DNA of 38,694 nt from a virus (taxonomy: Duplodnaviria; Heunggongvirae; Uroviricota; Caudoviricetes). Shown here one piece after another: positions 26,844 through 30,526 of this stretch (position 1 is the first letter of the stretch; every line of letters starts with the position of its first letter). Where the stretch lies: positions 1 through 38,694 of the IMG/VR virus record IMGVR_UViG_2541047880_000004. The stretch is one strand, 5' to 3'. A program made the position numbers and the translations under genes. The notes beneath the pieces were generated by a model. That model saw nothing but the letters and a program-made list of their open reading frames with translations, had not been told where the DNA came from and did not search any database.

Positions 26844-27122
26844 TCAGGCCTCGAAGAATTCGCCGTTCTTCGGGGCTTTTTCTTTTGTCAGCATTCTGGC
26901 TACTTTCTTAGCCAGTTCCGCCAACTCCTCGTCTTCAACACCCCATTCAAGAACAGCCAGAAGCATTCCCATTTTGGGTATGAAGCTGTCTTTCCATCGC
27001 GAAATTTGTGACTCATTAATCCCTAACGCGTCGGCAACCTTTCGCTGACCACGTACAGCAATTCGATTCAGGATGTTGCTTGTAATTGCATTCGCTTTCT
27101 TGCGAGTACTTGTAAGTTGCAT
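26844..27122 (-). CDS. cII: CII transcriptional activator
   Basis: 92 aa; ...SQISRWK..FIPKMGMLLAVLEWGVEDEELAELAKKVA... matches lambda CII. Confidence 0.88.
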   Translation of the reverse strand: MQLTSTRKKANAITSNILNRIAVRGQRKVADALGINESQISRWKDSFIPKMGMLLAVLEWGVEDEELAELAKKVARMLTKEKAPKNGEFFEA

Positions 27123-27178
27123 ATGTAAGTATTTCCTTAACTAATAAGAAGTTATGCGCATCAACTTATGCGCGTTGT

Positions 27179-27223
27179 ATTCCCGCATTTCGGCGGGAAT
27201 GAGGACCATGACTGTTAAAGAGC
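27179..27223 (-). promoter_or_regulatory. nutR (boxA + boxB)
   Basis: Minus-strand CGCTCTTTAA (boxA) followed by hairpin CCCGCCGAAATGCGGG; same hairpin recurs at nutL; lies between cro and cII. Confidence 0.6.
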
Positions 27224-27230
27224 GGTGTTA

Positions 27231-27431
27231 CTATTTGTTTTTCTTGTTGCTTGGGAAAGGACGAACTTCCTCTCCAATCACACTGCCATCAGGCTTTACC
27301 GTAACCATGATGTTACGGCCTGCCAGAATGGCCTTGCTGATAGCGCACTGGATTACACCAAAGTCACTGGCTGCTTTAGCCTGTCCATGGATTTTGGCGT
27401 AATCGGCAAGTGTCATTCGAATCATATGCAC
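27231..27431 (-). CDS. cro: Cro repressor
   Basis: 66 aa; ...[58 protein letters not shown] resembles lambda Cro. Confidence 0.88.
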
Positions 27432-27454
27432 TCTCCGTTATTAACCATGAACAA

Positions 27455-27526
27455 AGAATACTACAGGTATTCAAAGCAATCAATACTCAGGGTATTTTTA
27501 GTTTAAGTACCTTAGCTATTAGAATT
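27455..27526. promoter_or_regulatory. OR operator region with pR and candidate leaderless pRM
   Basis: Palindromes AATACtacagGTATT (27457..27471) and AATACtcaggGTATT (27482..27496), degenerate third at 27506..27520; minus-strand TTGATT-17bp-TATTCT (pR); plus-strand TAGAAT 5 nt before the cI ATG. Confidence 0.6.
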
Positions 27527-27531
27527 AAGCT

Positions 27532-28248
27532 ATGGAAAATAAAAAATCACTGACGACAGAACAGCTGGAAGACGCTAAGCGGCTTAAGGCTTTGTATGAG
27601 TCAAAAAAGAAAGAATTGGGAATAACCCAATACTCAATCGCTGATGAACTGGGTATCACCCAAGGAGCGGTAGGGCATTATCTTAATGGCAGAAATGCGC
27701 TAAACGTTGAGGTTGCATCTGGTTTTGCACGATTGTTGCAAGTCTCAATTGCTGATTTTAGCCAGTCAATTGCTGCCAAGGTTGCAGAACAGGCAGAAAG
27801 CCTTAAGAGCGATGCCAACGTAAGGTATGCAGGGGAATACAGAGCAGGAAAGAGGTATCCGGTGTTAAGCAGTATCCAGGCTGGCTCGTGGTGTGAAGCA
27901 TGCGAACCATACACCATTAAAGACATAGATGTTTGGCTTGAGTCTGACGCGCATATTCAAGGTAATGCGTTCTGGCTTAAGGTGGAAGGTGATTCAATGA
28001 CGGCACCGGTTGGGTTAAGCATTCCAGAGGGAACATTCGTTCTTTTCGATACCGGAAGGGAGGCGATCAACGGCAGCTTGGTCATAGCAAAACTTTCTGA
28101 CTCTAACGAAGCAACATTCAAGAAGCTGATAATCGACGGCGGAAATAAATACCTCAAGGGACTTAATCCTGCATGGCCTCTCGTGCCAATCAATGGAAAC
28201 TGCAAGATTATAGGCGTTGCAATTGAGACAAAACTCAGACTGGTTTGA
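27532..28248 (+). CDS. cI: CI repressor (HTH plus LexA/S24-like domain)
   Basis: 238 aa; N-terminus ...LTTEQLEDAKRLKALYESKKKELG... and C-terminal FWL.VEG.SMTAP...FKKL match lambda CI. Confidence 0.9.
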   Translation: MENKKSLTTEQLEDAKRLKALYESKKKELGITQYSIADELGITQGAVGHYLNGRNALNVEVASGFARLLQVSIADFSQSIAAKVAEQAESLKSDANVRYAGEYRAGKRYPVLSSIQAGSWCEACEPYTIKDIDVWLESDAHIQGNAFWLKVEGDSMTAPVGLSIPEGTFVLFDTGREAINGSLVIAKLSDSNEATFKKLIIDGGNKYLKGLNPAWPLVPINGNCKIIGVAIETKLRLV

Positions 28249-28266
28249 TCACGCAAGGGGGCGCTT

Positions 28267-28635
28267 ATGGTTGGAACCGCTATAGCAAGCTTTTTGGGGA
28301 TGTTGGCAATCTCAACAATTTACGGCTTAGCGCATGCTTTTATTGCGAAATCTATATCAGAAAAAATAAGCCAGGCTTGGGCGCATAGAACAGCTCGTTT
28401 CATGATTCTAGTGGTCATAGCAATACAAGGGATATCTGCATTTATCCTCTATGGATCAAGCTTATACCTATTGTATCAAGGCGCGACATTTACGCCTTAC
28501 ACCAGTGATTACGGAACCCTATACGATGGTAGTGAAGACATCTCTATGGCTTGGATCGTCTTTGGTTTATCTATGGCCGTGTCTGTTGTAGCAGACATCA
28601 TTAAGGTAATTCTCGTCTTAACCTTCGCTGACTAA
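28267..28635 (+). CDS. Integral membrane protein in rex position (lysogenic-conversion candidate)
   Basis: 122 aa, about three predicted TM helices; AAGGGGG RBS; starts 19 nt after cI stop on the same strand, upstream of OL. Confidence 0.7.
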   Translation: MVGTAIASFLGMLAISTIYGLAHAFIAKSISEKISQAWAHRTARFMILVVIAIQGISAFILYGSSLYLLYQGATFTPYTSDYGTLYDGSEDISMAWIVFGLSMAVSVVADIIKVILVLTFAD

Positions 28636-28766
28636 CCCATAATCCCGGCAGCAATAGCTATCGGGATCAACTTCACATATCCCGCATAAAAAGCACTGAA
28701 CAAGCAGACGACGAAAAAATAAATATCCTTTGTATTCATTTGCTTATCATTATTTCACCAAAAATA

Positions 28767-28809
28767 AATACCTTGGGTATTTACACAATAAAATACCTAC
28801 AGTATTCTT
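28767..28809 (+). promoter_or_regulatory. OL operators and pL promoter
   Basis: AATACcttggGTATT (28767..28781) and AATACctacaGTATT (28792..28806), same half-sites as OR; TTTACA-17bp-TATTCT reading toward N. Confidence 0.6.
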
Positions 28810-28852
28810 TAGCCATCAGCAGGACGCTGGTAGCCAAACGGAACAGATTGGC

Positions 28853-28895
28853 AGGCTCTTTAACATTGATGGGATTGTCCCGCCGAAATGCGGGA
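28853..28895 (+). promoter_or_regulatory. nutL (boxA + boxB)
   Basis: GGCTCTTTAA followed 14 nt later by hairpin CCCGCCGAAATGCGGG, identical to the nutR hairpin. Confidence 0.6.
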
Positions 28896-29066
28896 ACCAA
28901 AGAGTAGTTGGCTTTGGGGTGTGGTGAAGGGTTCATGGACGGGAATATGTCGCACGTAAAGCGGCGAGGCCTGCGGGACTATTGCCGAATTGAAGTCGGA
29001 CGAAGCGGGTCGAAATGGGCCTCCCACCTACCACACCACCAAAGCTAATCATCTGAGGAACAGAAA

Positions 29067-29186
29067 ATGTTAGACATCATGACCAACCCAATTCTCGGTG
29101 GTTTAGTTACCACATTCGCCATCTGCTTCGGTTTCACTATCTGGTCTGAAGTAGATGACTGGATGTGGGAACGCAAAAACAAATAA
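29067..29186 (+). CDS. Possible small single-TM peptide in pL leader
   Basis: 39-aa ORF MLDIMTNPILGGLVTTFAICFGFTIWSEVDDWMWERKNK; GAGGAA RBS; below ORF-track threshold. Confidence 0.3.
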   Translation: MLDIMTNPILGGLVTTFAICFGFTIWSEVDDWMWERKNK

Positions 29187-29226
29187 TCATCGACACACAA
29201 GGATGTGTACCTTCCCGGAGGTCAAC

Positions 29227-29532
29227 ATGACAGTAGTCATTACATATCTGGCTGACGATAACGCCAGAAATCGCCGCAGAGCACGCAGACAGGCTCAACG
29301 TGAACAGGCAATGCAAGAGCAGCGACTGGCGCGAAAAATTGCGCTAAAGCTCTCTGGTTGCGTCAGAGCAGATAAAGCAGCATCACTCGGAAGCCTTCGC
29401 TGCAAGAAGGCAGAAGAAGTCGAGCGTAAACAGAACCGTATTTACTACCGCAAGCCACGCAGTGAAATGGGTGTGACTTGTGTTGGTCGCCAGAAAATGA
29501 AATTAGGCAGCAAACCACTGTATGAGGGGTGA
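29227..29532 (+). CDS. N: N antiterminator (phage 21-like)
   Basis: 101 aa from internal Met of the 125-aa ORF; GGAGG RBS; Arg-rich motif NARNRRRARRQAQ; ...ARKIALKLSGCVRADKAASLGSLRCKKAEEVERKQNRIYY... matches remembered phage 21 N. Confidence 0.8.
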   Translation: MTVVITYLADDNARNRRRARRQAQREQAMQEQRLARKIALKLSGCVRADKAASLGSLRCKKAEEVERKQNRIYYRKPRSEMGVTCVGRQKMKLGSKPLYEG

Positions 29533-29535
29533 GAT

Positions 29536-29667
29536 ATGAGCTACCAAATTCAATACAGAAGTTGCGGTAGATGGGTTTGCGGAAACTCTTTCAAAACAAA
29601 AGAACAGGCTGAGCAATACGCAAAACAAACAGGTCAGGATTATCAAATTGTAAAGACAAGGAGATAA
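29536..29667 (+). CDS. Small hypothetical protein coupled to the PAPS-reductase-like gene
   Basis: 43-aa ORF MSYQIQYRSCGRWVCGNSF...; GAGGGG RBS; stop 1 nt before next ATG; AT-rich. Confidence 0.4.
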   Translation: MSYQIQYRSCGRWVCGNSFKTKEQAEQYAKQTGQDYQIVKTRR

Positions 29668-29668
29668 C

Positions 29669-30526
29669 ATGCCAGGATTTACAAGTAAATTCATACCAAG
29701 AAGAGAATTCAAGCATAATCCAGAAAGACTAAATGTTATTTCTTCCGGTGGTGGGACTCAAAGTAACGCAATAATCTGCTTAGTACATGCTGGCGTTCTT
29801 CCAAAGCCTGACATTATCGTTATGTCAGATACAGAACGTGAGGCAAGTAATGTATTTGAATATCAGAAAAAATATATAGCTCCTATTTGTGAAGATATGG
29901 GTGTTGATTACCTGATTGTTCCTAAAAGTAGATTTGCTACCTACGACATTGATGGGCCTGATCCAGACGTTCCTCTACCTGGATATTTCACAGAATACGA
30001 TGGAAGGGATTCAAAAGGAATGTGCGCTGGAAAGCAACCAGCATTTTGTTCTATAAAGTGGAAAACTGAAGTTATTCAGAGATTTTTAAATGAAAGATAT
30101 GGAGAGAAGTATCTTACAGCAAGAGGAGTGGATAGTTGGATGGGGATAAGCATTGAAGAGGCTAAACGAAGAGCGAAATACCCAACTGGCAAGTGGCAGA
30201 GGCGCTATCCACTTATTGAAATGCTAATGACTAAACAGATGGCAATTCAATGTGTCGAGGATTATGGTCTTCCTACACCACCTGCCTCGCTTTGCTGGAT
30301 GTGCCCTAACAGAGATGATGATCTGTGGCTTTATATGAAAAATAACGTACCATCTGATTTTGAAAGAGCATGTCAGCATGAAAAAGAGATACAAATGAAG
30401 TGGCCTCATTTGTGGCTTACTAAATATGGTGTTCCACTATCTGAGGCACCACTAACACCTAGTGGTGGTAAAAATGCACAAATGGATCTTATACAATTCT
30501 GCGATTCTGGACTGTGCTTCGTTTAA
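29669..30526 (+). CDS. PAPS-reductase-like PP-loop ATP pyrophosphatase family protein
   Basis: 285 aa; PP-loop-like SSGGGTQSNA near N-terminus; conserved-looking cysteines (CWMCP, FCDSGLCF); AT-rich. Confidence 0.75.
   Translation: MPGFTSKFIPRREFKHNPERLNVISSGGGTQSNAIICLVHAGVLPKPDIIVMSDTEREASNVFEYQKKYIAPICEDMGVDYLIVPKSRFATYDIDGPDPDVPLPGYFTEYDGRDSKGMCAGKQPAFCSIKWKTEVIQRFLNERYGEKYLTARGVDSWMGISIEEAKRRAKYPTGKWQRRYPLIEMLMTKQMAIQCVEDYGLPTPPASLCWMCPNRDDDLWLYMKNNVPSDFERACQHEKEIQMKWPHLWLTKYGVPLSEAPLTPSGGKNAQMDLIQFCDSGLCFV

Follow-up and report, generated by a model that had tools for sequence, protein, structure and literature searches.

Few prophage genes are made in every lysogen; those of the repressor operon belong to them and have repeatedly proved to be defence determinants, as exemplified by rexAB of phage lambda. 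In lambda, rexA and rexB occupy the slot between cI and the left operators (OL). We have analysed this slot in a stretch of 38,694 nucleotides (nt) from a virus of the class Caudoviricetes (IMG/VR record IMGVR_UViG_2541047880_000004, positions 1 to 38,694; hereafter, the window), where it is occupied by one gene, located on the plus strand at 28267-28635, starting with ATG and encoding a protein of 122 amino acids (aa). By its family profile, this open reading frame (ORF) is a homologue of hkaS, a gene of coliphage HK620 annotated as "unknown", and the ORF is thus not new. We consider it very probable that its product, HkaS, is an accessory inner-membrane protein expressed in the lysogen.

The cargo of the slot differs among phages. 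Apart from identical ones, the cI genes closest to that of the window are those of Sf6, Enterobacter phage BHUENT3 and Perceval, the prophage of strain LF82, and their slot cargo is unrelated to hkaS. In Sf6 (locus L019, 2108-2512), the product of gene 38, gp38, is 134 aa long and starts with a signal peptide; it has no sequence relationship to HkaS and, unlike it, is secreted or periplasmic. BHUENT3 (locus L018, 2170-2886) carries two ORFs, one of 127 aa that is Cys-rich and one of 109 aa whose C-terminus contains a transmembrane (TM) segment. In Perceval (locus L102, 33309-34859), cI is accompanied by a 340-aa ORF and a 168-aa TM protein, a two-gene, rex-like arrangement that differs from the one described here and whose sequences are again unrelated to HkaS. 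In P22, the slot is empty. The gene for the 168-aa TM protein of Perceval is presumably LF82_152, and we considered this lead for hkaS itself but rejected it, as the protein is a different one; it provides an analogy only. LF82_152, which is annotated as a "transmembrane protein" and lies two locus tags away from the cI of Perceval, is expressed 81-fold over the prophage background in lysogen RNA-seq (PMC9928086). A small RNA, svsR of prophage NC-SV, is also located at a cI 3' end (PMC12803456). The slot between cI and OL is a recognised place for envelope or exclusion cargo expressed in the lysogen.

The hkaS gene, its probable expression and its linkage to cI

The ORF of the window matches PHROG 6534 with an E-value of 2.5e-77, over residues 1-122 of the 122-position profile, and its product is 94% identical to HkaS of HK620 (AAK28867; PHROG 6534). 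In HK620 the gene takes this same place between cI and OL, and the operators on either side correspond; it is also carried by HK630, HK140, mEpX2, HF4s and some Stx2c phages, at 94-98% identity and under the labels "unknown" or "hypothetical". The neighbouring cI gene (27532-28248, plus strand) encodes a 238-aa repressor of the HK620 immunity type, with Pfam matches to HTH_3 and Peptidase_S24 and 99.6% identity to the cI of HK620. Its TGA ends at 28248, leaving a gap of 18 nt before the hkaS ATG, and a Shine-Dalgarno (SD) sequence, AAGGGGG, is present in this gap at 28255-28261 (plus strand), 5 nt upstream of the ATG. The E. coli, Hafnia-type and Salmonella-type lineages all retain an AAGG-type SD, 6-9 nt upstream. 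Between cI and hkaS, nothing resembling a promoter or a terminator was seen. Beyond hkaS lie OL2 (28767-28781) and OL1 (28792-28806), which are pattern matches with annotated equivalents in HK620, and a promoter-like signal on the plus strand at 28780-28808, where HK620 equivalently annotates the promoter pL. The original prediction, made from the letters of the window, of a gene that begins just after the cI stop with a strong ribosome-binding site and lies upstream of OL and pL is therefore borne out. By its layout hkaS is rex-position cargo, on the same strand as cI, directly 3' of it and before OL/pL.

A putative -10 hexamer of the promoter pRM, TAGAAT, is found on the plus strand at 27520-27525, 6 nt upstream of the cI ATG, and either TAGAAT or TACAAT is present at the same distance in every diverged lineage. 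Because this -10-like hexamer is conserved so close to the start codon, the cI-hkaS mRNA would be leaderless or nearly so, reminiscent of the lambda pRM message, in which cI is leaderless. The P22 record likewise annotates the 5' end of the RM transcript adjacent to c2. On the analogy of lambda and P22, we infer that TAGAAT serves pRM, and the same analogy argues strongly for the co-expression of hkaS with cI from this promoter. Given a leaderless cI and a strong SD for hkaS, HkaS could be translated more efficiently than the repressor.

Several comparisons show that hkaS is a real gene under purifying selection. It is intact in 80 of the 80 related IMG/VR loci. Between the E. coli type and the Hafnia type, synonymous divergence (dS) is 0.63 and non-synonymous divergence (dN) 0.107, giving an omega of 0.17 (dN/dS 0.15-0.2), and in comparison with the Salmonella type, whose synonymous sites are saturated, 58% of the residues are kept. 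In the E. coli population, the ratio of non-synonymous to synonymous polymorphism (pN/pS) is 0.34 for hkaS and 0.04 for cI, and the HkaS variants are sparse and conservative (I/V/L/M, S/T, A/S), without any hot spot. Between host genera, the rate of divergence of hkaS is about fourfold that of cI (dN of 0.107 vs 0.024, and of 0.346 vs 0.085).

The gene is found with a single type of repressor. Among 5426 complete E. coli genomes, cI DNA and hkaS DNA each match 146 genomes at 147 places, and no cI of the HK620 type without hkaS turned up; hkaS is present in 2.7% of these genomes, from many sources. Wherever the context was examined, in Salmonella, on Hafnia-type contigs, in metagenomes, on 80 viral contigs and in four E. 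coli prophages, the order is cro, cI in the opposite direction, a gap of 17-20 nt, hkaS, 350-650 nt and then N, this layout being identical in 79 of the 79 IMG/VR loci with flanks. The partner cI always belongs to one immunity type (86-100% identical) and the operators are also the same; the flanking N and replication genes vary between loci. Homology among diverged lineages spans exactly cro to pL (27213-28865 in the window), and the cassette is carried by P22-like podoviruses, lambda/HK97-like siphoviruses and Stx phages. A word-indexed search returned 11 HkaS clusters, and the GTDB species-representative genomes contain no HkaS relative. The family, confined to this one phage cassette, was never seen in chromosomal, non-prophage contexts. 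Homologues are thus always found behind repressor genes, as initially anticipated, but as one inherited cassette rather than by independent recurrence. As hkaS is trapped between cI and the OL which this cI has to recognise, it is not easily parted from them, and linkage alone says little on function.

The HkaS protein and its possible functions

HkaS contains three hydrophobic segments according to hydropathy (aa 3-27, 44-69 and 93-121), and an AlphaFold2 model built on a small family alignment displays three long helices and a short beta-hairpin at 78-86, with a mean predicted local distance difference test score (pLDDT) of 90.9. Both agree with the initial estimate of about three TM helices. 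The loop at 28-44 is basic (K28, K33, R41, R44), the N-terminus is uncharged and the loop at 70-92 is acidic (D81, D87, E90, D91), so that the positive-inside rule predicts an N-out/C-in topology. By codon on the plus strand, the predicted elements are TM1 at 28273-28347, a cytoplasmic loop at 28348-28398, TM2 at 28399-28473, a periplasmic loop at 28474-28542, and TM3 with the C-terminus at 28543-28632. Hydropathy, charge pattern and the pLDDT of the model (90.9) all point to the membrane protein that had been proposed. Its predicted cytoplasmic loop is just 17 aa long, it has no soluble domain, and its C-terminus is hydrophobic (...VLTFAD). Three clusters of residues are invariant across lineages, at the end of the cytoplasmic loop (KI.Q.W.H..ARF), in the periplasmic loop, where the cluster is rich in Tyr and Gly (YLLYQGATF.PY.S.YG..Y.G), and at the cytoplasmic end of TM3 (D110, K113, ILVLT.A).

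An exhaustive hidden Markov model (HMM) search of 1.84 billion representatives retrieved the HkaS family alone, with one other full-length representative. A 5949-aa protein (P0014) matched by the HMM was rejected, the match being a sum of chance similarities to a 7-bit motif, SATFQTYSSGYTTLY, of which this repeat protein has nine copies. The Pfam scan gave no family (best TssN, E 0.017, below its cutoff), the PADLOC and NCBIfam scans gave no match, and the only PHROG was the unknown-function PHROG 6534. No match was found in the PDB sequence search with the family profile, fold searches returned generic helical bundles only and were uninformative, and a literature search on "hkaS" and the protein accessions found no paper naming or testing hkaS. 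The best holin-model match was that of a homologue to TIGR01593, with an E-value of 0.08 and far below the 40-bit cutoff.

Known exclusion proteins were compared in the same way. RexB gave no Pfam match at E<=1 and an hhalign probability of 0.3% (lambda RexB), SieB no Pfam match and 0.9% (lambda SieB), and SieA 0.25% (P22 SieA), the SieA motif FxRYPxEAxxFNK being absent from HkaS. For T4 Imm and other exclusion or defence families, no Pfam, PHROG or PADLOC profile matched. The lack of resemblance to RexB and SieB in the original prediction therefore holds, with hhalign probabilities below 1%, and extends to Imm, also without a profile match. No ORF for a RexA-like partner is present between cI and hkaS, and tblastn detected no homologue of RexA, RexB, SieA, SieB or HkaP of HK620 in the window. 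As judged from these profile comparisons, HkaS is outside every known exclusion family.

Our tentative proposal, by analogy, is that HkaS acts at the inner membrane as a constitutive, passive block of genome entry by heteroimmune phages. hkaS would share a transcript with cI, made from pRE while lysogeny is being established and from pRM in the lysogen. This mRNA would be leaderless for cI, hkaS would be efficiently translated from it owing to its conserved SD, and it would probably end at the hairpin at 28642-28667. HkaS would then insert in the inner membrane with its N-terminus in the periplasm and its C-terminus in the cytoplasm, exposing a short basic cytoplasmic loop and a highly conserved acidic periplasmic beta-hairpin (YLLYQGATFxPYxSxYGxxYxG). 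Acting alone, it would block the entry of heteroimmune phage genomes, its target being either the ejection/tape-measure conduit or an inner-membrane host protein used by the phage, in a mode similar to that of P22 SieA, T4 Imm or HK97 gp15, to which it is unrelated. An entry block is favoured because HkaS has no soluble domain able to sense infection and because a large share of its invariant residues faces the periplasm in the predicted topology. A passive blocker would also fit constitutive co-expression with cI better, because an unregulated constitutive pore would be toxic. The window, in which tblastn detected no sieA, sieB or rex homologue, would have no such gene of its own, in support of this proposal.

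Several points weigh against an entry block. No homology links HkaS to any function, the family scans and profile comparisons being negative and the fold searches uninformative. There is no arms-race signature, since the few variants are conservative and show no preference for the exposed loops. The cassette is present in podoviruses, siphoviruses and Stx phages, so that a link with any single ejection apparatus is not apparent. The polar stripes of TM2 and TM3 (Q54, S65, S106, D110, K113) fit an oligomeric channel equally well. Finally, the positional argument is weak, as there is one repressor type and any gene between cI and OL hitch-hikes with it. It is also improbable, in our view, that HkaS founds a sequence-orphan class of stand-alone inner-membrane defence proteins with a mechanism unlike those of SieA, Imm and RexB. 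One possibility within such a class is that the periplasmic Tyr/Gly hairpin captures a phage ejection protein; alternatively, HkaS could be coupled to cI, linking the state of the envelope to immunity or induction.

The polar residues of TM2 and TM3, which are invariant, could instead belong to an abortive-infection effector, in which HkaS oligomerises into a latent channel or holin-like lesion that, once triggered by a membrane-level cue of infection, depolarises the infected lysogen and kills it, in the manner of RexB or P22 SieB and without a separate sensor. The rex position of the gene and the three TM helices, predicted N-out/C-in as in class I holins, are in agreement with such an effector, as is the weak, sub-threshold match of the homologue to TIGR01593 (E 0.08, cutoff 40 bits). 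We nevertheless regard it as unlikely, since there is no RexA-like partner and the gap between cI and hkaS is only 18 nt, the 17-aa cytoplasmic loop offers no cytoplasmic sensing domain, the charged C-terminal tail typical of holins and any similarity to RexB or SieB are lacking, and a constitutive stand-alone pore made from pRM should be toxic. Another conceivable though doubtful role is in lysogenic conversion or host physiology, HkaS modulating a host transporter, a sensor kinase or an envelope process and thereby improving the fitness of the lysogen. Many lysogen-expressed prophage genes are fitness factors, such as sitABCD in Perceval (PMC9928086). The steady purifying selection without diversifying hot spots, and the presence of hkaS in 2.7% of complete E. 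coli genomes from many sources, are consistent with a host factor, and the roughly fourfold faster divergence than cI between genera could reflect host membrane partners. However, faster evolution is expected of any small TM protein, HkaS has no homology to known regulators of host membrane proteins, and its family is limited to one phage cassette and never chromosomal outside prophages.

HkaS might also tune the establishment, maintenance or induction of lysogeny, either through the FtsH/HflKC-dependent turnover of CII or by coupling the state of the envelope to cI function; an influence on the transition from lysogenic to lytic growth has indeed been proposed for the Rex proteins of lambda. 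As deduced from the layout, transcription from both pRE and pRM would place HkaS at the decision, and its co-inheritance with one cI type is absolute through synonymous saturation, even as N and the replication genes were exchanged repeatedly. Nevertheless, physical trapping between cI and OL suffices for this linkage, related cI genes work with different slot cargo (Sf6, BHUENT3) or with none (P22), and no domain of HkaS suggests binding to a protease or to the repressor, so that we hold a modulator of the switch to be quite improbable. The last explanation to be weighed concerns a hydrophobic 35-aa ORF on the minus strand (28632-28739), which was first described as a possible antisense partner of hkaS or an artefact. 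Its frame is open, it overlaps the last 4 nt of hkaS tail-to-tail, and it is annotated as a coding sequence (CDS) in the HF4s record, all of which could suggest a toxin-antitoxin-like or sense-antisense pair. Such a pair is effectively refuted. Of 76 close relatives, 21 (~28%) have a frameshift at an A-run that follows codon 9 of the ORF, and in one more the ORF is truncated to 22 aa; in the Salmonella and Hafnia lineages the frame stops after 10-12 codons. The ORF evolves neutrally, its pN/pS, computed on in-frame haplotypes, being 0.89 (vs 0.34 for hkaS and 0.04 for cI), it has no PHROG, Pfam or PADLOC match, the Prokaryotic Genome Annotation Pipeline (PGAP) leaves it uncalled in four E. coli prophages, and no minus-strand promoter-like site was seen for it. 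Its conserved 5' end (MNTKDIY) is an operator-like site (28722-28736) read on the opposite strand, and its conserved 3' end (IPIAIAAGIMG) is likewise the complementary strand of the hairpin (28642-28667). It is therefore a chance open frame across regulatory DNA and not a gene: of the two initial options the artefact stands and the partner does not.

The hairpin, the operators and the surrounding genes

The hairpin just 3' of the hkaS stop (28642-28667, plus strand) has a free energy of -13.7 kcal/mol and a z-score of -5.1, none of 200 shuffles being as stable, and is not followed by a U-tract in this phage. A hairpin is found at the same place in every lineage, with non-homologous sequences; in L021, UUUCUU comes directly after a canonical GC stem. 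It probably marks the end of the cI-hkaS transcript (tIMM) and is a better terminator candidate than the tIMM of the HK620 record. An Rfam scan of 27000-30000 by E-value gave no match. Within the cassette, polymorphism is highest in the spacer between hkaS and OL, at ~0.34 variants/nt, compared to 0.14 in hkaS and 0.06 in cI. This spacer contains an A-run (~28706-28714), which is either A6 or A7 among close relatives.

Downstream of the hairpin, the operator-like site at 28722-28736, AATATCCTTTGTATT, matches the consensus AATAYN5GTATT perfectly, and its distance of exactly 45 bp to OL2 is the same in three lineages, that of E. coli, the Hafnia type and the Salmonella type. cI would bind there, and the site may be a true third OL operator with an unusual spacing. 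The HK620 record places tIMM on this site, and the sequence that it labels OL3 departs from the consensus. The right operators were found by the same pattern search, OR1 at 27457-27471 and OR2 at 27482-27496, with a spacing of 25 bp and annotated equivalents in HK620. This search yielded 14 matches against 4.25 expected, a number that none of 100 shuffles reached. One more operator-like site, with one mismatch (AATACAAGGGATATC), lies inside hkaS at 28422-28436 and is kept in the Hafnia type but absent in the Salmonella type. We rejected it as a regulatory element, since the conserved IQGIS codons explain it and the Salmonella lineage is without it.

These elements belong to a lambdoid immunity region at ~27.2-29.5 kb, in reversed orientation compared to the usual lambda map, with the order cro, OR, cI, hkaS, hairpin and OL/pL. 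cro (27231-27431; Pfam Cro) and cII (26844-27122; Pfam Phage_CII) are on the minus strand, and an N-like antiterminator (PHROG 271) is at 29227-29532. The segment 26800-28929 is ~98% identical to HK620, HK630, HK140, mEpX2, HF4s and two Stx2c phages, and outside the immunity region the window is a mosaic P22-like genome. The phage is P22-like and carries an HK620-type immunity cassette.

Between nutL and N, a stretch of 286 bp (28930-29215) is present in place of 62 bp in HK620. It contains a 39-aa ORF with a single TM segment (29067-29186; PHROG 7482, unknown function), which would come first in the pL transcript, and an E. coli prophage (L014) has a different insert, of 251 bp, near the same place. 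In the early-left operon, a 285-aa ORF (29669-30526) has an SGGGTQS motif reminiscent of PP-loop/PAPS-reductase-type enzymes, but is without a Pfam match at E<=0.01; in a Salmonella relative (L006), a PAPS_reduct gene is found farther along the same operon. A homologue of P22 Mnt, 75% identical, was matched at 1955-2203.

Significance and comparison with known systems

GenBank has listed the ORF as unknown for years, and a membrane gene in rex position will be no surprise to a specialist. HkaS is nevertheless a sequence-orphan, well-maintained candidate exclusion family in tractable model phages, encoded by one 369-bp gene. Its carriers are HK620, HK630, mEpX2 and Stx2c phages as well as 2.7% of complete E. 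coli genomes, and it has no relatives outside the cassette. If HkaS does exclude superinfecting phages, it would represent a new protein family in membrane-level superinfection exclusion, and phage typing, therapy and host-range results would be affected in strains bearing the cassette. The map of the cassette can also be corrected: the likely transcript end is at 28642-28667, the tIMM sequence of HK620 matches the operator consensus, and the antisense CDS of HF4s should be removed.

When set beside described membrane proteins of phages, HkaS recalls several of them without belonging to any. Class I holins are encoded in the lysis cassette and have three TM helices in an N-out/C-in orientation and a C-terminal tail that is highly charged. 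HkaS shares their topology, as predicted, but its C-terminus is hydrophobic and its gene lies in the immunity region and not with lysis genes. With lambda rexA-rexB, hkaS has in common the slot 3' of cI and before OL and, as we presume, co-transcription from pRM, and HkaS would be, like RexB, a small polytopic inner-membrane protein. It differs from rexAB in being a single gene, without a RexA-like sensor, and in the number of TM helices, three in HkaS and four in RexB. P22 SieA is a three-TM protein of the inner membrane that is alone sufficient to block DNA injection, and its types A-C have the conserved cytoplasmic motif FxRYPxEAxxFNK (PMC10883804). It is longer (162-164 aa) than HkaS and is encoded beside the ejection-protein genes under its own promoter. 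The likeness of HkaS to SieA is one of predicted topology only, in that HkaS too would be a stand-alone prophage protein of the inner membrane with three TM helices.

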